Origin: Chloroflexota bacterium
GTDB lineage: Bacteria > Chloroflexota > Anaerolineae > UBA2200
Direction: 5' to 3'
DNA: 64,000 bases
Assembly (NCBI GenBank): GCA_014360755.1
Contig: JACIWX010000002.1
Coordinates: 269,988 to 333,987, forward strand
Below, one piece after another: positions 424-40,851 of the stretch (the first letter of the stretch is position 1; each line of letters opens with the position of its first letter). The translations under genes were made by a program, and so were the position numbers. The notes under the pieces were generated by a model. That model was given only the letters and a program-made list of their open reading frames with translations, was not told the origin of the DNA and did no database searches.

Positions 424-678
424 TCAAGTAGAGGATAAGGAAGAGAATGCCGCTAACAAGGCACGCTCTGCTTCCTCAGGTAAGGCTATAGGCACAAAGT
501 AATCCGCTGGATAGAGATAATCTTCGCCTGATTCGTCAATCACCCGGATATAGCCATCACGAGCAGCGAGTTCGTCTGCGAGAACTCGATAAACCTTGCC
601 CACCTCCAAATCCTCGCAGCCGTCATTGCGAATGCAAACTGCAAATTGAGTTTTTGTCCCAAGCTTTTTCATATCCAT
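424..678 (-). CDS. Small acidic hypothetical protein, putative antitoxin or partner of the DUF4258-like gene.
   Basis: 84-aa ORF translationally coupled to the upstream gene (stop and start adjacent). No recognisable catalytic motif. Confidence 0.35.
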   Translation of the reverse strand: MDMKKLGTKTQFAVCIRNDGCEDLEVGKVYRVLADELAARDGYIRVIDESGEDYLYPADYFVPIALPEEAERALLAAFSSLSST

Positions 679-24706: not shown

Positions 24707-27298
24707 ATGAATTTGAATCGCTATACAGAAAAGGCGCAAGAAGCCCTGGTCCAAGCCCAGGAACTTGCGATGGAATATAATCACAGTCAAATTGATCCGG
24801 AGCATTTGCTCCTGGCGCTGCTGCAACAAGCAGATGGCGTGGTGCCGCAGATCATCGCGAAATTGGGCCTCACGCCAACACTGTTACAGCGTCCATTGGA
24901 AGAGGAATTGCAGCGGCGTCCCAAGGTCTATGGTGCGGCGGCGCGAGTTGGCATTGGGCCAACATTGCAAAATGTGCTCAACCGCGCCGAAGCGCAGGCG
25001 CAGTCCATGCGAGACGAATACGTATCCACCGAGCACCTGCTGATGGGCTTTGTGCTGGTGCCGAGCGGGCGTGCGGGTGAAATCCTGCAGCAGTATGGTA
25101 TCACGCTCAACCGCATTTATGAAGCCCTGACCAGTATCCGTGGCACCCAACGGGTGACAGACCAACACCCCGAAGGGAAATACCAGGCATTGGAGAAATA
25201 TGGGCGTGACCTGACCCAATTGGCGCGGCGCGGCAAGCTGGACCCGGTCATCGGGCGGGATGAGGAAATCCGCCGCGTTATCCAGGTGCTCTTACGGCGC
25301 ACGAAAAACAACCCGGTACTGGTGGGTGAGGCAGGCGTCGGTAAAACGGCCATTGTCGAGGGGCTTGCCCTACGCATTGTGCGCGGCGACGTACCCGAGG
25401 GATTGAAAAACAAACGCATCGTCGCCTTGGATTTGGGTGCTCTAGTGGCTGGAGCCAAATACCGCGGCGAATTTGAGGAGCGCTTGAAAGCAGTGCTCAA
25501 AGAAGTTACCGACTCTCAAGGCGAGATCATCCTCTTCATTGATGAACTGCACACGGTTGTTGGCGCTGGTGCAGCCGAAGGGGCGATGGATGCGAGCAAC
25601 ATGCTCAAGCCAATGCTGGCTCGTGGAGAGTTGCACTGCATCGGGGCAACCACCCTCGATGAATACCGCCAGCACATCGAGAAGGACGCTGCACTGGAAC
25701 GCCGCTTTCAGCCGGTCTATGTCAGCGAGCCTACGGTGGAAGAGACTATCAGTATCCTGCGCGGCTTGAAGGAGCGCTACGAGGTGCACCATGGCGTGCG
25801 TATCCAAGATGCTGCCTTGGTCGCTGCGGCCGTGCTTTCGCATCGCTATATCACGGACCGCTTCTTGCCTGATAAAGCCATTGACTTGATTGACGAGGCG
25901 GCTGCGCGGTTGCGCATGGAAATTGACAGCCTCCCAGCCGAACTCGACGAAGTCGAACGGCGCATCATGCAATTGCAAATTGAACAGCAAGCGCTCAAGA
26001 AGGAAAGCGATGAAGCATCCCAGGAACGCCTGAAGAAGATTGAGCAGGAACTCGCTGAACTTAAGGAAAAGAGCACCGCGATGAAGGGCCAATGGCAGCA
26101 AGAGAAAGAGGCTATTCAGGCCATCCAGCAACTCAAAACGCGCATTGAGGAAACCAAACAAGCCATTGAGCAAGCCGAGCGCCGTGCTGACCTAGAGCAG
26201 GCAGCAAAATTGCGCTACGGAGAATTGCCCAATCTGGAGCGAGAACTGCGCGCTCAGGAACAGCGCCTCCGGGAAATACAGCGTGGGCAACCCATGCTCA
26301 AGCAGGAGGTGGACGAGGAAGACGTCGCAGAGGTTGTCTCTAAATGGACGGGTATTCCTGTCTCGAAACTGCTGGAAGGCGAGAAAGCCAAATTATTGCG
26401 TATGGAAGAAAATCTGCGCATGCGCGTGGTGGGCCAGGACGAGGCGATTTCTGCCGTAGCGAACGCGGTACGACGGGCAAGAGCCGGCCTGCAGGACCCG
26501 AATCGGCCTATCGGTAGCTTCCTGTTTCTCGGCCCTACTGGCGTGGGCAAAACGGAACTGGCTCGCGCTTTGGCTGAGTTTCTCTTCGACGATGAAGACG
26601 CCATGATCCGCCTGGACATGAGCGAATACCAGGAGCGCCACACCGTTGCGCGCTTGATCGGTGCACCGCCAGGCTACGTTGGCTATGAAGAAGGCGGCCA
26701 GTTAACAGAAGCCGTGCGCCGGCGGCCGTATTCCGTGGTGTTATTCGATGAGATTGAAAAGGCGCACCCAGAGGTGTTCAACGCCCTCCTGCAGGTGCTG
26801 GACGATGGCCGGCTAACCGATGGCCATGGGCGTACAGTGAATTTCAAGAATACGGTGATCATCATGACCTCCAATGTCGGCAGCCACTGGATTAAGGAAT
26901 TGGGTGGCCGCGATGAGGCGGAGATGCGCCGCCGGGTGCTGGAAGCCTTGAGCCAGCAATTCCGACCAGAATTCCTGAACCGCATTGACGAGGTCATCAT
27001 CTTCCATTCACTAGGTATGGAACAATTGATACAAATTGTGGACATCCAGCTACGACGCTTGCAGGCTTTGCTCAATGACCGCAAGGTCAAACTAGAGCTA
27101 ACACCAGCCGCAAAGCAGCGTCTGGCGGAAGAAGGTTATGACCCCGTTTATGGGGCAAGGCCCCTCAAACGGGTCATCCAGCGACGGATACAGGATCCAC
27201 TCGCTTTGAAACTGCTGCAAGGCGAATTCAAAGAAGGGGATGAGATCGTGGTAGACGTCCAAGACGGTGAATTTGTCTTTAGAGCGAATAGGAAGTAA
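24707..27298 (+). CDS. clpB: Chaperone disaggregase ClpB.
   Basis: Two AAA modules (GEAGVGKT; GPTGVGKT). Long coiled-coil M-domain. Clp N-domain repeats. 863 aa. Confidence 0.9.
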
Positions 27299-27430: not shown

Positions 27431-29917
27431 ATGATGATGTCTTTTGAGCGATTTACAGAAAAAGCGCAGGATGCTGCAGCCCGCGCTTATGAGATTATGC
27501 AACGCTACCGGCATGGCCAGTTGGATACAGAGCACATCCTGCTGGCACTGCTGGAGCAACCCGATGGGGTGATTCCCGAGATTCTGGAGCGACTGCACGT
27601 GAATGTCGAAGCGGTGAAGAGCCGTTTGGATGACGTGCTCCGCGCTAGCCCTAGGCTGCAGACCTTTGGCAGCACAGCCAGACCGATGCAAGTGTACATT
27701 ACCCCACGCGTCAAACGCGTTTTGGATTTGGCAAACGAAGAAGCCCATAGGATGAAGGATGAATACGTTTCGACGGAGCACATTTTCTTGGCTATTGTCA
27801 ATGAACGCGATGGTCCCGCAGCGCGGATACTCAACGATTATGGCGTAACCAGAAACAAGGTGCTGAATGTCCTCCCAGATGTCCGTGGCGGGCAACGGGT
27901 AACCAGCCCAGAAGCTGAGAGCCGCTATCGCACGCTGGAAAAGTACAGTCGTGATCTGACTGCCCTGGCTAGAGAAGGAAAATTAGACCCAGTCATCGGA
28001 CGCGACCGTGAGATTATGCGCGTTATCCAGGTGTTGTGCCGGCGCACCAAAAACAACCCAGTGCTGATTGGGGAAGCCGGTGTGGGCAAGACAGCAATCG
28101 TCGAAGGATTGGCACAAAAAATTGTCAACGGTGACGTGCCCGAATTACTGATGAACAAACGGCTGATCGCACTGGACCTGGGCGCTATGGTGGCTGGAAC
28201 ACGCTTCCGGGGCGAGTTCGAGGAGCGGATCAAAGCCGCATTGGACGAAATCAAGCGTGCTGAGGGCGAGATCATCCTGTTCATTGATGAATTGCACAAC
28301 GTGGTCGGTGCTGGCGCTGCCCAGGGAGCCATTGATGCTTCTAGCATGCTCAAACCAGCCTTGGCACGTGGTGAACTACGCTGTATCGGCGCCACCACCC
28401 TTGACGACTATCACCAACATATCGAGAAGGATTCCGCGCTGGAGCGGCGTTTTGCTCCTATCTTTGTCGAAGAGCCCACCGTAGAGGAAACCATCGAGAT
28501 GCTCAAAGGCTTGCGGCCACGCTATGAGGAGCACCACCAGGTCGCCATCAGCGATGAAGCGATTGAAGCGGCCGCCCGCTTATCCGACCGCTACGTCAAA
28601 GACCGCTTCCTGCCTGATAAGGCGATTGACCTCATTGACGAAGCCGCATCCAAGTTGCGCATTGCCATTTTCAGCCTGCCCGAAGATTTGAAGCAGATGA
28701 AATTGGAGATTGGCCAGTTGATGGCTGAGGAAGAAACAGCGTGGCAAAACCGCAACTACGAGCAGGCTGCCATTGTCAAGAGCAAGCGCCTGAAACTGGA
28801 AGAAGAATTCAAGACAAAAAAGGAAACATGGAAAGCGGAGCGAGGTCTGGACGAGGTCGTACGTGAGGCGGATATTGCCGCCATCATCTCTGACTGGACC
28901 GGCATTCCCGTAAGCCGTATGTTGGAGACCGAAGCCGAGAAATTGCTGCACATGGAAGAGCGCCTGCATGAGCGCATTGTCAGCCAAGATGAAGCCGTAT
29001 CCGCCATATCGGATGCGATCCGCCGCGCACGCTCTGGGTTGAAGGACCCGCGGCGCCCTATCGGGAGCTTTATCTTCCTTGGTCCAACTGGCGTTGGCAA
29101 GACCGAACTGGCAAAGGCTCTCGCCGAGTTCCTCTTTGACGACGAAGATGCCCTGTTGCGCGTGGATATGAGCGAATACCAGGAGCGGCACACCGTCTCC
29201 CGCCTGATTGGTGCACCCCCAGGATACGTGGGGTATGAAGAAGGCGGGCAGTTGACCGAGGCAGTACGGCGGCGCCCCTATCAGGTGATCCTTTTCGATG
29301 AGATCGAGAAGGCACATCCCGATGTATGGAATGCCCTGCTCCAGATTCTGGAGGATGGCAGGCTGACCGATGGGCAAGGCAATGTGGTAGACTTTCGCAA
29401 CACGGTCATCATCATGACCTCCAACATCGGCACGCAGTACATGCCCAAAGGCGGTGGCACTTTAGGCTTCCGCACACCCAGCGAGCCCGCTGAAACGGAA
29501 AAGATGCGCTCCAACATCGAAGAGGCGCTGAAAAAGACCTTCCGTCCAGAATTCCTGAACCGTATTGACGAAGTGATCATCTTCCAGCGCCTGAGCAAGG
29601 AAGACATGAAGCGCATCGTGGACTTACAGATGAAGGATATCCGCCAGCGTCTGCGCGAGCAGGGACTGGACATCCAACTCACAGAAGCGGCGCGGGATTG
29701 GTTAGCCGAAAAGGGCTACGACCCTGCCTTTGGCGCCCGTCCACTGCGCCGTACGCTGCAGCGTCTGGTGGAGAGCCCGCTTTCGAAGAAGCTCATCCGC
29801 GGCGAACTGAAACCCGGCGACGAACTACAAATTGACATCGAACACGACGAGGTGGTCTTCCGCAAAGTGAAGGAGAGGGAACCAGCAGAGGCTCCCGCAT
29901 CCTATATCACCAGTTGA
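27431..29917 (+). CDS. Clp/Hsp100 ATPase, ClpC-like (short middle domain).
   Basis: Two AAA modules. Clp N-domain. Short M-domain. 828 aa. Confidence 0.8.
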
Positions 29918-30834
29918 TCGTACAACCGTTCCAAACTGAGGTCCGGACAAACCGTATCGGGGCATTTGAGGGTGAGCGTAGCAGCAGAGACGCCCAGGCG
30001 CATCGCCTCATCGAGCGGGAATCCGTTGACCAAGCCGTAGACAATGGCAGCGGTCAGGGCATCGCCAGCGCCCGTGTAATCCACTACTTCACAGCGGATA
30101 GCAGGGATGTAACCGCTTTCACGGGCGCTGGCATAGCACAGCCCTTCCTCACCAAGAGTAATCACAGTAATCCCCACACCCTTTGCCACCAGCTCTTGGA
30201 CCGCTGCCATTGCTTCTTCGCGCCCATGGATAGGATGCCCACACAATAGCTCTGCTTCCGCCAAATTAGGCGTAATCATCGCTAGATCGGACAGATGTTT
30301 CCTCAAGCGCGGAGCCAGGGTAGTAGAGGTAGGGTCCACCGTGACGGGCACCCCATAGTGCTTGGCGGTGCGGATGGCTGAGGCAAGCGTTGGGGGCGAT
30401 AGGTTGGAGTCCAGCACCAGCATCGCGGCACCCTTGAAAAGGCCTCGTTGCGCGTAGATGTAGGCGGGTGTGATTAAGCGCATCGTCTCCATTTCATCCA
30501 CGGCAAAGGTCTTGCTGCCGGCTTCATCCAGGATGGCTAGGTACGCTGCAGAGTGACACTGGTCTGTGATGATCACTTTGCTGACGTCCACGCCGGCGCT
30601 AGCCGTGCGCTCCAGAATCTGCGCTCCAAAGGGGTCGTTGCCCACCACCGAAAGCAGGATTGTAGGCTGGCCCAGGCGCGCCAAATTCTCCGCCACATTG
30701 CGCCCCACGCCACCAAAACTGAGCGTGATATCGCCGGGCACCGACGTACCCAATTGCAGTGGCTTGTGTGCGCGGCCCTTGACATCCACACTTGCCGCGC
30801 CGATGACGAGGATGTGAGAAGAAGAAACGTTCAT
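29902..30834 (-). CDS. PfkB/ribokinase-family carbohydrate kinase.
   Basis: N-terminal [11 protein letters not shown]...FGGVGRNVA and C-terminal [17 protein letters not shown] anion-hole motif. Confidence 0.8.
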
Positions 30835-31381: not shown

Positions 31382-32608
31382 ATGGAGGAAATGATGAGCA
31401 ACATTTTGATAATAGCTGCCATAACTGCTTTAATGTTTGTCGTAGGTATCCTCCTAGGGATTTTTTTTGGATACCCGTTCTTGGGGGCAATAACGGGCCT
31501 ACTAGCAGGCTTATCATTAAGTGCTTATTGGATAACGAGACGCCGCCGCTGGCTTGCTACTATAATTCTGCTCACGCTATTTGCACTAGCCTATGTCACA
31601 GGTGGTTGGTTGGGAACTATGTACGCTGCTGCAGTTAGTGGGCTTACGCTTTTCACTTCTGCTGCAATCCTGCGCGAATTCTATGGAGGCAATGAATTCG
31701 AAGCCTTTTTTCATCATCTACGCCTTCTGGTAGGTTTCATTCGGGGAATTCAGGTAATAGCGGATGGATCAATTGTTGCGCCTAGCGCCTCTCGATCAGA
31801 GCTAGGTCCATTCCTTATAGTCGTGGGTCCTGAGAATGCCATAATTATGCAACGTGGTCCGCAGCAAACGCGTATCTCAGGACCCGCAGTATTCACAAGC
31901 GCGCCGTTCGAATACGTGAAACGGGTATATGATTTACGTCCCCGGCAAAAAACTTTTACCTTTCAAGATGTCTTGACAAGCGATCTAATGGCCACAACAG
32001 TGACGGTTTCTGTTACTTATGGCATCAAGATACCTCCACGGATTAGACACGGTCAGGCATCATGGACAGATGCAGAGACACGTGTAATTGAGCGGATAGA
32101 TTCCTGGATGACAGACTGGGAGACACGCACAGCAGAAACGATCGAAGGGAGTGTAAGGCAAGCTGTAGGAAGGCTGGACCTGGCAACATTGCTGACACCT
32201 GGATACTTTGCTGATCTGGCTAGACAGATCCAAATCTTGGCAATTCGTACCCTGCGTCCTTGGGGTGTGAACATCCACCAAGTAATCGTTAGCAGCGTAC
32301 AGCCCGCGAATGGGGTCAAGACAGCTACAACGAATCGTTGGATCGCCAGTGCTGAGCTACAAACGACCATTACTATTGAACGCGCAAGGGCTTTAGCCTG
32401 GAAGGAGGCATTGTTGCTTCTGGCGGACGGCTATGCAATAGCCAAACAAAAGGGAATGTCAGAAGAGTCCATTCATAGGGAAGTGTTGCGTCGTACACTT
32501 GAGCAAATTGCGAAAGACCCTGCTACAAAGATAATCTTCACCCCCGAACTAAATAGCGCGCTTGCTGGACTATTTCGTTCCATAGGATTAATTTCAGACG
32601 CAAGCTAA
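31382..32608 (+). CDS. Membrane protein with an SPFH (band-7/flotillin-like) domain. First gene of the low-GC island.
   Basis: Three to four N-terminal TM helices, then an SPFH-like core (IVVGPENAIIMQRGPQ...FTFQDVLTSDLMATTVTVSVTYGI). AT-rich codon usage. Confidence 0.55.
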   Translation: MEEMMSNILIIAAITALMFVVGILLGIFFGYPFLGAITGLLAGLSLSAYWITRRRRWLATIILLTLFALAYVTGGWLGTMYAAAVSGLTLFTSAAILREFYGGNEFEAFFHHLRLLVGFIRGIQVIADGSIVAPSASRSELGPFLIVVGPENAIIMQRGPQQTRISGPAVFTSAPFEYVKRVYDLRPRQKTFTFQDVLTSDLMATTVTVSVTYGIKIPPRIRHGQASWTDAETRVIERIDSWMTDWETRTAETIEGSVRQAVGRLDLATLLTPGYFADLARQIQILAIRTLRPWGVNIHQVIVSSVQPANGVKTATTNRWIASAELQTTITIERARALAWKEALLLLADGYAIAKQKGMSEESIHREVLRRTLEQIAKDPATKIIFTPELNSALAGLFRSIGLISDAS

Positions 32609-32650
32609 GGGAAAGATATGGGGTTCGAATGATGCTATTTGCGCTAAAGA

Positions 32651-32896
32651 TTAACGCGTTGTCTCAATATCTATTGCATGTGATTCCAAAGCAGATTGGG
32701 CCGGCTGCGAATCCAAGACAACACCAAATGCTGTGGCCACGGCTTGCATGGCAGCACTAAAACCCGCTCGATATATGGCCACTTGTGTAATTGGTAAGTT
32801 TATCGCCAAAGAAGCGTTCGCTTTGTCAATGGCTTGAAGAATCTGCTGAATATCTTGTTTCAAGAATACTTCTGACTGAATTCGAAATAGGCTCAT
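32651..32896 (-). CDS. Small hypothetical protein (81 aa), divergent from the 33179 operon.
   Basis: ORF only. No motif. Confidence 0.3.
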   Translation of the reverse strand: MSLFRIQSEVFLKQDIQQILQAIDKANASLAINLPITQVAIYRAGFSAAMQAVATAFGVVLDSQPAQSALESHAIDIETTR

Positions 32897-33029
32897 GCTT
32901 ATTCACCTTTTGCAGAACTCATTTTGATGAGGAGTAATCTCCCTGTCCGTTAAGATATTGGAACATTTGTTCTAATACTAGCACAGAATTTGCTTAATGT
33001 CAAATGTGCTATCCATTGTATCCCAGTTT

Positions 33030-33062
33030 TTGACAGTTTTTCAGTTTTGTATAAACTATATA
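33030..33062 (+). promoter_or_regulatory. Sigma-70-like promoter (TTGACA ... TATAAA) ahead of the island operon.
   Basis: Read directly from the sequence. Confidence 0.35.
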
Positions 33063-33178
33063 TCGTTACTGAAGGAGAGTACAATACCTTGAGTAGCGGG
33101 CCTTGAAGGATTGAAACTCGTTCGCGGGATCGGTCTCTTGTTATCAAGATTATTTGCTAGTCTGTTATAGGCCGAAAT

Positions 33179-33568
33179 ATGGGCGGAATTTACGAAATCT
33201 TTCGTGAGGCATTGCCTGAAATCATTGCTGGGCTAGTCGTTGCAGCTATCCTTGCCCTTGTTGGTGTGGCGGTGCGTAAGCGTGCTAATAAGGTTGCCTC
33301 ATCCCATCAAAATGTACCCCCTTCTAGTCCACTCCCCTGTACAAAGCCCCAATCGAAGAAGAAAGAGAACGCAGAGTTGCTTGACCTAAAGCACCGTCGG
33401 CTGCATGAGCTCCAAAAGAAAAAAGCCCTTATGGGCATCAATACTCCACCCGAAGTGATGATCGAGATTGAGGAACTGGAGAAAGACATCCACGAGCTTG
33501 AAAGGATAGACCGCAATGGTTATGGGCGAAACGGGGAGCGAAGCACAAGAGCTCAAGGAGCTCATTGA
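33179..33568 (+). CDS. Small membrane-anchored protein carrying a copy of the shared ~50-aa helical module.
   Basis: N-terminal TM helix. C-terminal ELLDLKHRRLHELQKKKALMGINTPPEVMIEIEELEKDIHELE is homologous to the N-termini of the next two proteins. Overlaps the next gene by ~50 nt in another frame. Confidence 0.45.
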   Translation: MGGIYEIFREALPEIIAGLVVAAILALVGVAVRKRANKVASSHQNVPPSSPLPCTKPQSKKKENAELLDLKHRRLHELQKKKALMGINTPPEVMIEIEELEKDIHELERIDRNGYGRNGERSTRAQGAH

Positions 33569-35063
33569 GGCCTATCGCCGGCGGCTTCACAAGCTGCGTG
33601 TGCGTGTGGCTCTGATGGGCATAGATGCGCGGCCCGAGGATTTGATTGAGATCGAGGACATTGAAAAAAAACTCGCCGAGCTAGAAGAACAACTGAACCA
33701 TTTCGCAGCCATTCCGGTAGCGGGATGGAAAGTACCGGCAAAGGAGTTAGAGGGTCTCAGATACAAGCTAGACCGGCGCATTGGGGTCCTGGAGGCTTCC
33801 CTTCAGTATCTTACTGTTAGTTTACGCTTCTCGCCACGAGGAAAAGATAAGTATGAGGTCCTCTTGCAATCGGAAGTGGGCGATGTGGCCGATGAATTTG
33901 TCTTGCCCTTTACGGCTGATGAGGTTTTTCGTTTCAAATCCGAGGTGGAGAGGGCTATCCTGGCTCGTGGTAGCGGTTTCCGAGGGCAACTGCCTTCGGC
34001 TATGGAACGCCTCAAGGAGTTCGGCCTCAAGTTGTATAAAGGACTCCCCGAAGCTGTACGAGAGCGTTATCAGGCAGCTCGGGATAAGGCCGTTGCCGAG
34101 GGATATACTGGTGTGCGCTTGCGTTTGAATTTGACTGACTCACGTCTGGCAGCTGTCCCATGGGAGTTCCTATACGACCTCAAACGAGGAGAATTCCTCG
34201 GTCTCTCCGGGCAGACCCTTCTAGTGCGCTATGCCGAACTTCCTTACCCTCCTACACTGGGCCTTCACCCTCCTTTGAAGGTTCTGGTAGTAGCTCCTAA
34301 CCCAAGGGATTTGCCCCCTTTAGATGCGGAACAGGAGCACCAACGTGTTGAAGGGGCCTTGAAGGACCTGGAGGAAGCCGGACTGATTACTATCTATTGG
34401 TTAGGCTTGCCAAAACGACCTATCTCGCTGCAGACCCTGCATGATGCTTTATTCGCCTTTCGACCCCACCTGCTTCACTTTATTGGCCACGGCACGTTCG
34501 ATGAACAGCGCGGTGAGGGGGCTCTCTTTTTCGAGGACGAGAAGACTTTGCGAAAGGAACCGGTGAGCAGTTGGCGACTGGCCCAGTTGGCCACCAGTTC
34601 TGAGAGTTTGCGCCTGGTCTTTTTGAACGCTTGCAAAGGAGCCAAGACCTCGGAGGTTGAGAAACTGAGTAGCTTGGCTGCATCTTTGGCGCAGAAAGGC
34701 ATCCCGGCGGTTATTGGGATGCAGTTTACGGTCACTGACGAGGCAGCCATCGAGTTCTCCAGCAAATTCTACCAGCGGCTGGCCGAGGGGGCACCAGTCG
34801 ATGCCGCTGTGCAGGAGGGGCGTATCCATCTAGGAGTGGTGAGGGACAATCCTATGGAGTGGGCGGTACCGGTGCTTTACCTTCTGCCTAGCGACGGGAA
34901 ACTTTTTCAGATCTCAATGCTAGGAAAGGACAATGATGACAAAGAGCGTCTAGCCCGATTAATGATGGACATTGCAAGGGCTGCATGCGGCGCGGGCGTT
35001 CAGCTAGATTCTATGTTTTTTACAAAAATTATAGAGATTTTAGGCAGATGTCCTGAAAAATAA
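33516..35063 (+). CDS. CHAT-domain (caspase-like) protease with the N-terminal shared helical module.
   Basis: N-terminal ELKELIEAYRRRLHKLRVRVALMGIDARPEDLIEIEDIEKKLAELE. C-terminal caspase-like His/Cys dyad LLHFIGHGTF and LVFLNACKGA. CHAT-like block KVLVVAPNP. Confidence 0.7.
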   Translation: MVMGETGSEAQELKELIEAYRRRLHKLRVRVALMGIDARPEDLIEIEDIEKKLAELEEQLNHFAAIPVAGWKVPAKELEGLRYKLDRRIGVLEASLQYLTVSLRFSPRGKDKYEVLLQSEVGDVADEFVLPFTADEVFRFKSEVERAILARGSGFRGQLPSAMERLKEFGLKLYKGLPEAVRERYQAARDKAVAEGYTGVRLRLNLTDSRLAAVPWEFLYDLKRGEFLGLSGQTLLVRYAELPYPPTLGLHPPLKVLVVAPNPRDLPPLDAEQEHQRVEGALKDLEEAGLITIYWLGLPKRPISLQTLHDALFAFRPHLLHFIGHGTFDEQRGEGALFFEDEKTLRKEPVSSWRLAQLATSSESLRLVFLNACKGAKTSEVEKLSSLAASLAQKGIPAVIGMQFTVTDEAAIEFSSKFYQRLAEGAPVDAAVQEGRIHLGVVRDNPMEWAVPVLYLLPSDGKLFQISMLGKDNDDKERLARLMMDIARAACGAGVQLDSMFFTKIIEILGRCPEK

Positions 35064-35219: not shown

Positions 35220-36902
35220 ATGAGCGCAAATCAAAAGCCAGGGGAAGCAGAGCTAAAGAATTTGCAAGAGCTCATCGAAGCCCATAGGAAACGGCTACAC
35301 AAACTTCGTGTGCGCGTAGCTTTGCAAGGCATAGATGCCAAGCCTGAGGACTTAATTGAGGTCGAAAATATAGAGCGCCAACTCTCCGAGCTTGAGCGGA
35401 AAAAACAGATCCTCTATGAAACGATAAGCGGCCTGAGTAAAGATGAAATAAGCAAGGATACCACCGAGATAAAAGATTCATTAGCCACCCTTGAAGGGAA
35501 AATAGAGAACCTTGACAAGAGAACCTCCGAGCGAGGGGTGGGTTTCACCAATAGGCAATATGAATTGGATCAAATTCTTAGTCCTTTCAGCAAGCCGTTT
35601 ATTATCATTGATGCTCCCGCCAGCTATGGGAAGACCTACTTGCTTAGAGCTGTGGAGCGCAAGCTGCAGTCTGAGAGAAGAGAAGTGTGGATTTGCCGTT
35701 CAGTTGATTGCTATAGGTTTAACGATAAAACAGGGATTATGACGGAAATCACTGGCAGTACTGTGAATGACGTGAACAATCTCCTCCCATTGGTTGATAG
35801 GGCTATGGAAACTGCCAGGGCCAATGGCTTAATGTTACTCTTTGATTCCATTGAGCATCTTGACGATAAAGTTTCTCACTGGCTGAAGAAAAACCTAATA
35901 CCAGCGCTAAATAATTCCTCATCAAACAGGGGTCGCAAGTTTAGAGCTCTCTTCGCTGGCCGGTACGTTGGAACCTGGGAAGATGGTTTAGGTTTACCTC
36001 ATCTCACCTTAAGCCTCACACCCTTTAGCAAAAAGGTTGTACAAGCATTTGTTCAGGAAGTAGGAAAGCAATTACATTTTCACTGGTCTGATAGAGATCT
36101 CGACGTCTTTGTTGAAGAACTGCTTGATATAACGGGTGGGTATCCCAAGGCCATTGTGGACATAGTGGAACATCTGGGGGATGAGCAAAAATTCGACATG
36201 ATCCTAGATAGAGAGAGCCCTGACTACTATTTCCAGCTCAGTAGGAAGAAAGATTTCTATAACAGATTTGTCCGCGGAGAGATCCCAAAGATCCTACAGG
36301 AGGTCGATCTCGCCCTGCAAAGGGCATTTGAGGTCGTCAGCGTGTTCCGTGCTTTCAACGCGGATACTCTGAACGCTCTTATTATGAAAAGGCACATACG
36401 GGAGTGGAGCAATGGCTGGGAGCTCTTTGAGGCTATGCAAAAAAACCGCTTGATAGAGGAAAAAGCAAGGCATCCTCTTGCCTGCGACAAAATCCTCCAG
36501 CGTGTTCTGGCAGCCAAAATGAGATTTGAGGATCCTTCTCGCTATGAGGGGCTTCAGCATTTCGCTGTCGCCCTATACGATCGCTGGATTCAGGGATTGA
36601 AGTACCCAGACGGTGAGTTGCCCAATCCACCTACCGGGTCTGATCAAATAACTTTTATAATAGAAGCACTCTACCACTATCTTCATACAACTCAGGACGA
36701 AAGAGATATTTTGGGAAAGCTGGACAGTTACCTCAACTGGCTAAGATCCCCTTTTGACCCCCGTAGCGCGGCGCGAGCCTTGAAACGAGGCGTCGAGGAG
36801 GACGAACAGCTGCCGGGGATGCTTAAAAGAGCTATTGGAGATAACGGGTATGACAACTTTCTCAAACATATAGATCGCTTCGGGGAGGAGGGAAAGCGAT
36901 GA
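35220..36902 (+). CDS. STAND-type P-loop NTPase with the N-terminal shared helical module.
   Basis: N-terminal ELKNLQELIEAHRKRLHKLRVRVALQGIDAKPEDLIEVENIERQLSELE. Walker A DAPASYGKTYLL. Walker B LMLLFDS. GYPKAIV (GxP) motif. Confidence 0.65.
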   Translation: MSANQKPGEAELKNLQELIEAHRKRLHKLRVRVALQGIDAKPEDLIEVENIERQLSELERKKQILYETISGLSKDEISKDTTEIKDSLATLEGKIENLDKRTSERGVGFTNRQYELDQILSPFSKPFIIIDAPASYGKTYLLRAVERKLQSERREVWICRSVDCYRFNDKTGIMTEITGSTVNDVNNLLPLVDRAMETARANGLMLLFDSIEHLDDKVSHWLKKNLIPALNNSSSNRGRKFRALFAGRYVGTWEDGLGLPHLTLSLTPFSKKVVQAFVQEVGKQLHFHWSDRDLDVFVEELLDITGGYPKAIVDIVEHLGDEQKFDMILDRESPDYYFQLSRKKDFYNRFVRGEIPKILQEVDLALQRAFEVVSVFRAFNADTLNALIMKRHIREWSNGWELFEAMQKNRLIEEKARHPLACDKILQRVLAAKMRFEDPSRYEGLQHFAVALYDRWIQGLKYPDGELPNPPTGSDQITFIIEALYHYLHTTQDERDILGKLDSYLNWLRSPFDPRSAARALKRGVEEDEQLPGMLKRAIGDNGYDNFLKHIDRFGEEGKR

Positions 36903-39720: not shown

Positions 39721-40851
39721 ATGATCCAAACTAATATTTCATCTCCATTCAAGGGAACACTTTCACAACAATTATTTACGGAAATCGATAGGCAATGCGA
39801 TTGTGCATGTCTCGAACCAGATCTGTTCATTTCCTGTCTCCCTGCCCATCCGATTTTCTGCTACGTTGAAGTTACCCCTGTTTGTAATAATCTTTGCCTT
39901 GGGTGCGGAAACATTTTCAGGGCCGATAGAACCTCGCCACCGCTTTCATCCGCAGAATGGCAAACTGTTTTGACTAGCTTACAACCTTTTGTTCATTATC
40001 TCAAACTCACTGGGGGCGAACCGACGCTGCACCCAGAGTTCGAAACCATTATCCGAACAGTTCAGGAAAAAGACATCCCCTTCGCGCTTTTCACCAACGC
40101 CAGATGGAATGCCCCAGAACGACTCATCGCGCTTCTGCAAAGTACCACACAATGTAGAGGCTTGCTTGTTTCTTTGCATGGCGCAACGGCTGCTTCTCAT
40201 GATGCTTTTACGGGAGTTATGGGCTCTTTTAGTGACACTTGCAGCAATATCAAACGAGCCGCCTTCGCTGGCCTGGATGTCAGAACGAGCACTGTCATCA
40301 CCAAATATAACTGGCAAGAGATCGACACAATCGCCACTCTAAGTCAGAGCTTAGGGGCTCACTGTGCTGTATTCAACCGCTACATAGGGCCTCCTTTGCC
40401 CGAGCTAGAACCTAGCAAAGAACAATTGCAGCATGCAATTGGAGTAATCGAATATATGAGGCGGAACCTAACAAATAACCAACAATCAATGGTCGAATTC
40501 GGAAATCATATTCCTTATTGCCTCTATCCTTCCTCTTCTGCTGCTTGCCTTGCAGGGATCGCTTATTGCACTGTTGACCCCTGGGGCAATGTGCGGCCTT
40601 GTAATCATGCTCCACTGATCTGTGGCAATTTACTAGTGCAGTCACTGGAGGAGATATGGCGTTCGGAGACAATGGAAGCATGGCGAAAAATGATCCCTAT
40701 GGAGTGCGCTGGGTGCGCATTATACCAGACTTGCCATGGAGGGTGTCGAGCTGAGGTGATGCTACGTAACGCCTCTAATTATTACTCACTAACCAACAAA
40801 TCACACCGGTCTACGCTGCCTACCGAAGCAAGAGTACTTCAAATTGGATAA
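39721..40851 (+). CDS. Radical SAM/SPASM-domain protein with no N-terminal RRE, last gene of the island operon.
   Basis: CNNLCLGC CX3CX2C cluster. LTGGEPTL. C-terminal SPASM Cys cluster CTVDPWGNVRPC...CAGCALYQTCHGGC. 5-nt gap after the STAND-TPR gene. Confidence 0.8.
   Translation: MIQTNISSPFKGTLSQQLFTEIDRQCDCACLEPDLFISCLPAHPIFCYVEVTPVCNNLCLGCGNIFRADRTSPPLSSAEWQTVLTSLQPFVHYLKLTGGEPTLHPEFETIIRTVQEKDIPFALFTNARWNAPERLIALLQSTTQCRGLLVSLHGATAASHDAFTGVMGSFSDTCSNIKRAAFAGLDVRTSTVITKYNWQEIDTIATLSQSLGAHCAVFNRYIGPPLPELEPSKEQLQHAIGVIEYMRRNLTNNQQSMVEFGNHIPYCLYPSSSAACLAGIAYCTVDPWGNVRPCNHAPLICGNLLVQSLEEIWRSETMEAWRKMIPMECAGCALYQTCHGGCRAEVMLRNASNYYSLTNKSHRSTLPTEARVLQIG

Follow-up and report, generated by a model that had tools for sequence, protein, structure and literature searches.

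A CHAT protease as candidate output of a membrane-associated, NLR-like cassette in Chloroflexota

The CHAT protease and its family

The stretch of DNA analyzed here (the window) comprises 64,000 nucleotides (nt) from a Chloroflexota bacterium, positions 269,988 to 333,987 of contig JACIWX010000002.1 in assembly GCA_014360755.1. Near its middle, an open reading frame (ORF) at 33516-35063 encodes a predicted protease of the caspase-fold CHAT family. This gene sits in a short cassette that also specifies an SPFH/Band_7 membrane protein, a small membrane anchor, two nucleoside triphosphatases (NTPases) of the STAND class, and a radical S-adenosylmethionine (radical SAM) enzyme with a SPASM domain (Table 1). 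The start codon, ATG 33516, is preceded about 10 nt upstream by the Shine-Dalgarno-like sequence AAAGGA. NCBI holds an identical protein under the name "MAG: CHAT domain-containing protein [Chloroflexi bacterium]", MAG standing for metagenome-assembled genome, and the CHAT domain itself is ordinary and previously annotated.

Table 1. Predicted features of the cassette, in window coordinates (aa, amino acids; TM, transmembrane; AF2, AlphaFold2)
Feature	Position	Strand	Evidence
SPFH/Band_7 membrane protein, 408 aa, ~4 N-terminal TM segments	31382..32608	+	Band_7 E=7.3e-15, hydropathy
Small membrane-anchor protein, 129 aa	33179..33568	+	TM aa ~7-32, linker, type-B hairpin
Type-B hairpin of TM anchor	aa 61-109, nt ~33359-33505	+	module profile, 79.9 bits
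CHAT (caspase-fold) protease, 515 aa	33516..35063	+	Pfam, alignment, AF2 model
Type-A hairpin module of CHAT	aa 9-60, nt 33540-33695	+	module profile
Beta meander plus helical N-domain of CHAT	aa 96-195	+	AF2 model
CHAT core	aa 195-454, nt ~34098-34877	+	Pfam PF12770
Putative catalytic His325	nt 34488-34490	+	conservation, motif
Putative catalytic Cys373	nt 34632-34634	+	conservation, motif
Two-helix C-terminal tail of CHAT, window-specific	aa ~470-510	+	AF2 model, alignment
Short "helper-like" STAND NTPase, 560 aa	35220..36902	+	exact NCBI match, motifs, AF2
Type-A hairpin of short NTPase	aa 12-61, nt ~35253-35402	+	module profile, 86 bits
"Sensor-like" STAND-TPR NTPase, 938 aa	36899..39715	+	Pfam; N-terminal NTPase domain, C-terminal TPR array, no adaptor
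Radical SAM/SPASM enzyme, 376 aa	39721..40851	+	Radical_SAM 56.8 bits, SPASM 36.5 bits

The initial annotation, made from the sequence alone, had placed a His/Cys dyad about 50 residues apart in the motifs HFIGHG and FLNACKGA. Both motifs are found in the uninterrupted 515-aa frame, at residues 321-326 and 369-376, with His325 and Cys373 separated by 48 residues. Comparison with Pfam PF12770, which that annotation had proposed, gives 106.6 bits (E=2e-30; cut-off, 24 bits) over profile positions 22-286 of 289. CHAT is the sole significant Pfam domain of the protein, with Peptidase_C25 overlapping the same core below threshold. In an alignment of 120 CHAT homologues, H321, G324, and H325 are invariant, C373 is conserved in 119, and N371 in 118. 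The two grounds for doubt named at the outset, a missing profile match and an unconserved dyad, thus did not materialize, and the ORF is predicted to encode an intact CHAT protease with a conserved dyad.

The AF2 model, built from 88 sequences, has a mean predicted local distance difference test score (pLDDT) of 86.6 and a predicted template modeling score of 0.78. It opens with a two-helix hairpin (residues 6-37 and 40-65) and continues through a helix (76-94), a three-stranded beta meander (98-129), and a helical bundle (134-194) into a caspase-like core (199-456) and two C-terminal helices (471-510). This agrees with the earlier description of the N-terminal half as an adaptor module plus a helical or beta region. 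Foldseek comparison with the PDB ranks Csx29/TPR-CHAT first (7zoq_A, E=1.7e-12) and the SAVED-CHAT filament second (8tl0, 5.5e-12), followed by separase and DdvA (the top four span E values of 1e-12 to 1e-8) and then by gingipain, caspases, and MALT1. The CHAT alignment profile likewise matches SAVED-CHAT 8tl0 (E=5e-24). The PADLOC SAVED_CHAT and NCBIfam HetF models cover the CHAT core alone, and the partial HetF match reaches 68 bits against a cut-off of 1200.

A frameshift or pseudogene origin was considered for the CHAT ORF and the membrane-anchor ORF, the 3' end of which runs 53 nt into CHAT in a different frame. It was rejected, since close orthologues start alike and the same two-ORF layout is present in eight independent assemblies, which also argues against an assembly artifact.

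The wider CHAT family, mostly from Chloroflexota, is 35-45% identical to the window protease over residues ~96-466. Its members begin at the beta meander ('YLDFELEI...SPAGEA'), share the dyad, have no N-terminal hairpin, and end in C-terminal domains that vary from protein to protein (FGE-sulfatase, WD40, PASTA, TPR, SH3, TIR, or PD40). The hairpin is limited to the ~10 closest homologues of the window protease, all of which are without a variable C-terminal domain. The window clade has thus given up a sensor in cis and gained an adaptor at its N-terminus, and sensing seems to have passed from cis to trans, to the STAND pair. Passages of Doré et al. 2024 PNAS (PMC10907252) describe CHAT proteins of Chloroflexota whose C-terminal sensors vary, some of them next to bAvd genes of diversity-generating retroelements (DGRs), and CHAT/CLec proteins diversified by DGRs. 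The window protease shares with that family the N-domain, the CHAT core, and the dyad; unlike it, the Doré et al. proteins have a ligand-binding domain in cis at the C-terminus and no hairpin, and one of them, P0030, is followed by bAvd.

P0030 is a CHAT-FGE-sulfatase protein of the parent family found at L024:6001-8907 and in L025 (L numbers denote related loci throughout). Its bAvd gene lies ~340 nt downstream, which suggests that its C-terminal lectin-fold domain is hypermutated by a DGR. The window protease has a terminal elaboration of its own, a two-helix tail of ~45 aa (nt 34920-35063, aa ~470-515) ending in …KERLARLMMDIARAACGAGVQLDSMFFTKIIEILGRCPEK. This tail is missing from the nine closest homologues, which end soon after a conserved 'DGxxF'.

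Partner proteins and a shared hairpin adaptor

The two NTPases downstream of CHAT are both predicted to be STAND-type. An identical 560-aa protein in NCBI sets the start of the short NTPase at ATG 35220; the protein is laid out as a hairpin, a long helix, a nucleotide-binding oligomerization domain (NOD), and a helical C-terminal domain without repeats. A homologue search with this protein returned 8 proteins, which served for the start codon and a shallow multiple alignment and not as a census. Its Walker A (GYGKT, K138), Walker B (LLFD, D209), and TGGHP motifs are invariant among 6-8 orthologues, and its Pfam match falls slightly under threshold (AAA_22, 25.9 bits against 27). The AF2 model (pLDDT 83.5) finds the resistosome of the helper NLR (NOD-like receptor) NRC3 as its best PDB fold (E=2.2e-9), with Sr35, 2qen/2fna, Apaf-1, and CED-4, including the CED-4/CED-3 holoenzyme, among its other matches.

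The second NTPase, STAND-TPR, overlaps the stop of the short NTPase by 4 nt (36899/36902). Its GxGK (K41) and D148 are invariant in orthologues, and its NOD scores above the Pfam cut-offs for ATPase_2 (35.2 bits; cut-off, 33.2) and AAA_16 (33.4; 32.6). The repeats match TPR_12 (123 bits) and TPR_MalT, and the NCBIfam FxSxx_TPR model scores 56.9 bits in this region against a cut-off of 300. The two NODs are paralogous (hhalign probability 97.8%, E=8.9e-13, 361 columns). One NOD thus carries an adaptor and no repeats and its paralogue carries repeats and no adaptor, an arrangement that resembles a sensor/helper split.

The radical SAM gene begins 5 nt past the STAND-TPR stop (39715/39721) and is present in 16 of the 18 loci in which it could be assessed. 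An intact CxxxCxxC motif occupies residues 55-62 of the enzyme, the SPASM region is rich in cysteines, and among solved structures the protein is most closely related to PqqE (6c8v, E=2.1e-18). No NCBIfam equivalog reaches its cut-off for this protein, the best being AhbD (106 bits against 500). An extra N-terminal cysteine cluster (C26, C28, C30, C39, and C47; window 39721-39870) precedes the CxxxCxxC motif. Assignment as a viperin-like radical SAM enzyme was rejected, given that a SPASM domain is present and that the similarity to pVip is generic. The searchable literature yielded no mechanistic precedent for a radical SAM/SPASM enzyme as the constant partner of a pair of NOD-like receptors (NLRs).

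The feature that ties the protease to its neighbors is the hairpin. A six-frame profile search finds exactly three copies of this ~50-aa module in the window, at the C-terminus of the 129-aa TM protein and at the N-termini of CHAT and the short NTPase, all scoring 80-94 bits; the adaptor module of the earlier description is therefore real. Nineteen of ~50 positions are invariant across the three, including RRLH...A..G...P....IE.E. AF2 predicts two long helices (pLDDT 83-95), and 42% of the residues are charged (E 18%, L 15%, R 14%, I 10%). No Pfam (E<=10) or NCBIfam model matches the hairpin segments, nor does any curated model of the effector-associated domain (EAD), bDLD, or TCAD families, even at E<=10.

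When 1.84 billion representative proteins were searched exhaustively with HMMER, 1,458 hairpin carriers emerged at E<=1e-3 and 55 at E<=1e-10; this search was used in place of a word-indexed database search with the same profile, which had returned only 4 small proteins. In nearly all of the 147 top matches the hairpin sits at one or the other end of the protein, N or C, and it is often tandem. Among the 70 longer carriers are proteins with TIR (8), EAD7 (7), TCAD9, TCAD2, Peptidase_C14, and SAVED domains, and others with S_4TM, LRR-Roc, nSTAND1, PT-HINT, and FGE-sulfatase. These partners belong to the domain vocabulary of the conflict systems surveyed in parts of Kaur et al. 2020 (PMC7159879).

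Hairpins fall into two subtypes by position. Type A is N-terminal and occurs on CHAT, NTPase, and SPFH N-termini, and type B is C-terminal and occurs on TM, SPFH, and EAD7 partners; identity is 58% for both A-A and B-B pairs and 38% for A-B pairs. Within the loci of this clade, every CHAT and every short NTPase bears a hairpin, and hairpins also occur on TM, SPFH, and EAD7 partners; the STAND-TPR and radical SAM proteins never bear one.

In its behavior, the hairpin is EAD-like, while lying outside the named EAD families. The EAD coupling principle and the criteria for the class are set out in section 30 of Kaur et al. 2020 (PMC7159879). By comparison, the hairpin is small, terminal, and non-enzymatic, with no catalytic motif, and has one copy on the core NTPase and further copies on neighboring CHAT, TM-anchor, SPFH, and EAD7 proteins. 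Other EADs, or a directly fused effector, fill the same slot in homologous NTPases: among the more distant of these, the N-terminus is occupied by EAD1 in L020 (72 bits), by EAD7 in L015, and by bDLD1 in L017 and L021, with a weak EAD7 match in L022. The EAD1 of L020 recurs on a neighboring small protein. This equivalence of slots, read with the Kaur et al. criteria, supports more strongly than any other evidence the view that the hairpin serves as an effector-associated adaptor and that CHAT holds an effector or output position. Because hairpin and EAD7 also occur together in one polypeptide, the hairpin is a distinct domain.

The third hairpin of the window lies on the TM anchor, which has no Pfam match of its own. 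The SPFH protein of the window is without a hairpin in the six-frame search, so that hairpin-less SPFH and TM-hairpin proteins are separate there, and in L002/L003 the upstream gene encodes an SPFH/Band_7 protein with a hairpin at both ends. A natural fusion, P0002, joins TM, hairpin, hairpin, and CHAT in three assemblies, and in L026 a TM segment is fused to a module-bearing NTPase; both TM segments are homologous to that of the window anchor. The adaptor copy on a membrane-anchor protein, taken with the recurrence of SPFH, argues that the system is membrane-associated.

P0002, at L007:1013-3001 and also in L008 and L009, runs TM(x2), type-B hairpin, type-A hairpin, CHAT. Within it, a 31-aa stretch over the second helix of the hairpin (PADLIEIEDIEKKLAELAEQLSRLMA[I/V]PAAE) is duplicated exactly and in tandem. 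In the window, a 570-nt gap of low GC content separates the SPFH and TM-anchor genes (32608-33179). An 81-aa minus-strand ORF in this gap (32651..32896), gene-called also in L027 and L028, has no family match. The gap also holds a promoter-like site, TTGACA-16-TAAACT (33030-33057), of a kind no more frequent here than chance; a promoter and terminator scan of the whole cassette gave counts at or below shuffle expectation. A search of the gap for a precursor-peptide gene found unconserved small ORFs only, and no gasdermin family member was found among the cassette proteins or the small ORFs of the gaps.

The cassette across genomes

The order CHAT, ~565-aa NTPase, ~940-aa STAND-TPR, and radical SAM/SPASM enzyme recurs in five lineages, with CHAT identities of 47-80%. 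When the short-NTPase alignment was scanned over species-representative genomes, it returned 13 further loci, from Anaerolineae, Thermoflexales, Chloroflexia, Conexibacter, and Blastocatellia, and a protein search added L026. The NTPase/STAND-TPR pair is present in all 14, with a six-frame search needed to place STAND-TPR in L011 and the radical SAM gene in L015. CHAT is present in 2 of the 14, L018 and L019. In L018 it lies 3' of the radical SAM gene and has an N-terminus weakly like that of the NTPase, and in L019 it forms the C-terminal part of a fusion with the short NTPase.

Across ~20 loci, the sequences point to a constant core of helper STAND, STAND-TPR, and radical SAM/SPASM enzyme. 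CHAT is a swappable output, variously fused, relocated, absent, or replaced by another protease. Such a replacement is seen at L026:515-10832, where the NTPase itself carries the conserved TM anchor and hairpin, and where downstream two Band_7 proteins (502 and 390 aa, in that order) flank a TPR-Peptidase_S24 protein (407 aa). In L010, from a Thermoflexales MAG, the slot holds a TM-hairpin protein with a weak Phage_holin_3_6 match and an EAD7-hairpin protein. A Peptidase_C25 gene lies upstream in L013.

Several loci have features of separate interest. L019:507-13947, from a Blastocatellia MAG, carries two tandem copies of the system in the order STAND-TPR, NTPase-CHAT fusion, and radical SAM, without an adaptor. 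In the CHAT-less L010:469-1455, the TM and EAD7 proteins both end in a type-B hairpin, and the EAD7 protein looks like a bridge from one adaptor to another. At L022:14229-19577 (Anaerolineales), the NTPase/STAND-TPR pair is followed, instead of by a radical SAM gene, by a bacterial alpha-2-macroglobulin of 1,782 aa; alpha-2-macroglobulin is a protease-trapping protein. A fusion of protein kinase and SNF2 helicase (at least 854 aa, truncated by the contig end) precedes an orthologous cassette at L001:2-2566, and may be another conflict-type gene.

In the window, the cassette (about 30.5-41.5 kb) has a GC content of 43-51%, against 55-59% in the flanks. Its flanks are housekeeping in character (ClpB/ClpC, PfkB, and UvrC), and related triads occupy unrelated genomic contexts in each lineage. 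The low GC content and the patchy distribution indicate a single acquired cassette of ~9.5 kb, and not a multi-system island. On the 5' side lie two ClpB/ClpC-type double-AAA+ genes, 24707-27298 (863 aa) and 27431-29917 (828 aa), which are probably housekeeping, followed by a convergent PfkB kinase gene on the minus strand (29902-30834). A pair of Clp ATPases beside a protease cassette is nonetheless noteworthy.

These comparisons recast what the initial annotation had said of the locus. Its "island" becomes one low-GC cassette of about 9.5 kb between the housekeeping genes just named. Its two gating NTPases are both STAND-type and both constant, but they are not equivalent gates: the adaptor is on the short NTPase only, and STAND-TPR is its paralogue. 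The membership it gave also left out a core component, the radical SAM/SPASM enzyme. As for CHAT as the effector, the protease does occupy a variable, effector-like slot in a conserved cassette, yet that slot holds CHAT in only the two loci named above among those reached through the NTPase, and its killing activity is no more than putative.

Interpretation and rival readings

The reading favored here, with a probability of about 0.55, is that CHAT is a catalytically competent protease, recruited by an adaptor, that serves as the output of an NLR-like cassette associated with the membrane. On binding a trigger, the TPR sensor would drive NTP-dependent co-oligomerization of the sensor and helper NODs, clustering the hairpins of the helper. 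The clustered hairpins would recruit CHAT through its matching type-A hairpin, and the type-B hairpin would bring in the membrane anchor or an SPFH scaffold. Induced proximity would then switch on the dyad of His325 and Cys373, much as CED-4/CED-3 or NLRC4/caspase-1 are activated by recruitment between CARDs. The activated protease would act on a single specific target or a small number of them, the membrane being the most plausible site, and the outcome would be arrested growth or death of the cell in a conflict or abortive-infection response. The natural fusions in L007 (P0002), L026, and L019 link TM anchor, CHAT, and NTPase. Hairpin-hairpin binding, sensor/helper co-assembly, and proximity activation are all inferred from architecture, and the defense function and the CHAT substrates are inferred as well.

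A number of observations weigh against this reading. CHAT is absent from most triads, which implies that the core system works without it, and the constant radical SAM/SPASM enzyme has no place in the proposed mechanism. STAND-TPR bears no adaptor, and its probable link to the helper consists of paralogy and operon coupling alone. Adjacent adaptor copies are expected to be closer than distant ones under the EAD criterion, and the identity between CHAT and NTPase hairpins, 63% on average within a locus against 60% between loci, does not clearly follow that pattern. No defense-island signal was found around the cassette or the related triads, whose neighbors are heterogeneous. PADLOC run on the cassette gave no system match, only domain-level matches to SAVED_CHAT and BovA, a weak one to Avs2, and a generic similarity to pVip-like radical SAM proteins. 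With no island context, the case for a conflict function draws on domain vocabulary, modular swapping, and patchy distribution.

A processing role for CHAT at the membrane is a serious rival to direct killing and just as plausible, although the reading built on it is judged less probable than the favored one. Here, CHAT would be a specific processing or signaling protease that cleaves the product of a neighboring gene, and not a terminal killing effector. Its targets could be the hairpin-bearing TM anchor or the SPFH scaffold, cleavage of which would free or activate a membrane-disrupting factor, or a protein or peptide modified by the radical SAM/SPASM enzyme. To our knowledge, every characterized CHAT relative is a site-specific processing protease, and the fold-search relatives Csx29, SAVED-CHAT, separase, and DdvA are all of this kind. 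Hairpin-bearing membrane partners also recur (the TM anchor, SPFH, and the weakly holin-like protein of L010), and in L026 the slot holds a different protease beside two SPFH genes. SPFH proteins are classic partners of proteases, a partnership attributed to Tavernarakis 1999 in a passage of PMC7159879. Section 24 of Kaur et al. 2020 (PMC7159879) outlines a module of radical SAM-SPASM enzyme, AP-ATPase-TPR protein, processing peptidase, and precursor that would fit the same scheme. However, neither a conserved small precursor gene nor an HEXXH peptidase was found, the radical SAM protein is no FxsB equivalog, and the window SPFH protein is without a hairpin. CHAT is, moreover, missing from most loci that keep the radical SAM gene, which argues that it is not the obligatory peptidase of a radical SAM pathway.

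It is improbable that the cassette is instead a housekeeping or developmental module for regulated proteolysis in filamentous Chloroflexi, with no role in conflict. HetF acts in cyanobacterial cell division or differentiation, and DdvA is a CHAT-containing anti-sigma factor; the partial HetF match, the presence of DdvA among the fold matches, the housekeeping flanks, and relatives without defense-island context are all compatible with such a role. The HetF score, however, is far under its cut-off and covers the CHAT core only, and Pfam places no DNA-binding or sigma/anti-sigma domain in the cassette. A developmental module also sits poorly with a low-GC cassette in unrelated genomic contexts per lineage, with output modules that are swapped, fused, or lost, and with a hairpin that co-occurs with TIR, SAVED, S_4TM, caspase, EAD7, and TCAD domains typical of conflict systems. 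Least credible by far is that the shared N-terminal segment is a chance or compositional coiled coil, or an amyloid-type signaling motif like those that NLR N-termini share with adjacent effector C-termini, CHAT included, in the account of Dyrka et al. 2020: the hairpin is indeed short and highly charged, but its invariant positions, profile scores of 50-94 bits, wide recovery, near-constant terminal and often tandem placement, and confidently predicted helices all speak against it, and its E/L/R/I-rich composition led to rejection of the BASS motifs, described there as Q/N/G/V/I-rich and K/P/L-poor.

The closest published parallels to the favored reading are the EAD-coupled NTPase/peptidase conflict systems outlined in parts of Kaur, Burroughs, Iyer, and Aravind 2020 eLife (PMC7159879) and 2021 eLife (PMC8195603). 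In these too, a small terminal domain is duplicated on a core NTPase and on effectors next door, including caspase-superfamily peptidases, and they likewise occur in Chloroflexota and in other lineages of filamentous habit. The cassette differs in its adaptor, a two-helix hairpin outside the curated EAD, bDLD, and TCAD models and not a Death-like bundle, and in its core, which is a STAND pair with a radical SAM/SPASM enzyme instead of MoxR-vWA-VMAP/iSTAND or GTPase-GAP1. One of these arrangements, the EACC1-caspase System 4 (Kaur et al. 2020, PMC7159879, in the relevant part), is reported chiefly from actinobacteria and places a 5' single-TM EACC1 gene before a 3' caspase. The window has a single-TM gene before CHAT, defined by its hairpin in the absence of a Pfam match; the System 4 caspase has a variable C-terminal domain, as does the wider CHAT family, whereas the window CHAT has none.

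Among better-known assemblies, CED-4/CED-3, Apaf-1/caspase-9, and NAIP-NLRC4/caspase-1 also pair an adaptor-bearing STAND NOD with a caspase-fold protease that carries the same adaptor, and plant NRC sensor/helper pairs offer a likeness to the second, repeat-bearing paralogous NOD without an adaptor. Unlike the apoptosome and inflammasome, the cassette uses a ~50-aa hairpin and not a six-helix CARD, has a CHAT/separase-type protease and not a C14 caspase, adds a membrane anchor, SPFH, and radical SAM, and is only presumed to co-assemble. Csx29/TPR-CHAT of Craspase (type III-E CRISPR) and SAVED-CHAT (type III-B or CBASS-like) are closest in fold and sequence among solved structures and have the same His/Cys dyad, and in both the protease is turned on by an upstream sensor. 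The window CHAT, by contrast, has no TPR or SAVED domain, and its activation would run through an adaptor-coupled STAND NTPase in place of RNA-guided or cyclic-oligonucleotide sensing. No Cas or cyclase genes were found in the cassette (31.4-40.9 kb) or its immediate flanks, the rest of the window being outside that scan.

For the radical SAM enzyme, the nearest precedent is provided by the FxSxx-COOH systems, in which a metallopeptidase processes a peptide modified by a radical SAM/SPASM enzyme. As peptide-processing accessory systems they were reportedly described by Haft and Basu in 2011. They resemble the cassette in setting a radical SAM-SPASM gene beside an AP-ATPase/STAND-TPR gene and a peptidase, and differ from it in the HEXXH metallopeptidase, the FxSxx precursor, and the FxsB equivalog, all of which it lacks. 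The searchable literature holds no description that we found of the paired-STAND and radical SAM/SPASM triad, the hairpin family, or the SPFH/TM association, and a 2026 STAND survey makes no mention of radical SAM, CHAT, or SPFH.

More tentatively, the cassette may represent an undescribed bacterial NLR system in three parts, with a STAND-TPR sensor, a paralogous helper STAND whose N-terminal adaptor can be exchanged, and a radical SAM/SPASM enzyme as a required component. The hairpin would be a new and widespread adaptor family in two positional subtypes, and the outputs plugged in through it would be CHAT, TM or holin-like proteins, SPFH scaffolds, and the S24 protease. The CHAT domain and the EAD principle are both known, and the interest lies mainly in this surrounding system and much less in the protease.

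If this proposal is correct, the cassette would represent in prokaryotes what sensor/helper NLR pairs and the recruitment of caspases through CARDs are elsewhere, with radical SAM chemistry built into NLR signaling, for example to make or modify a peptide or protein signal or ligand. The recurrent link to SPFH and TM-anchor proteins points to a membrane-localized protease platform. As the hairpin wires together TIR, caspase, SAVED, STAND, and membrane proteins, a profile of it would improve the annotation of conflict systems. NAIP/NLRC4 and the sensor/helper NLRs of plants are likewise built from an adaptor-bearing helper and a repeat-bearing sensor, and a simple bacterial version would give a tractable model for NLR co-assembly and for the adaptor-mediated activation of a caspase-fold protease.

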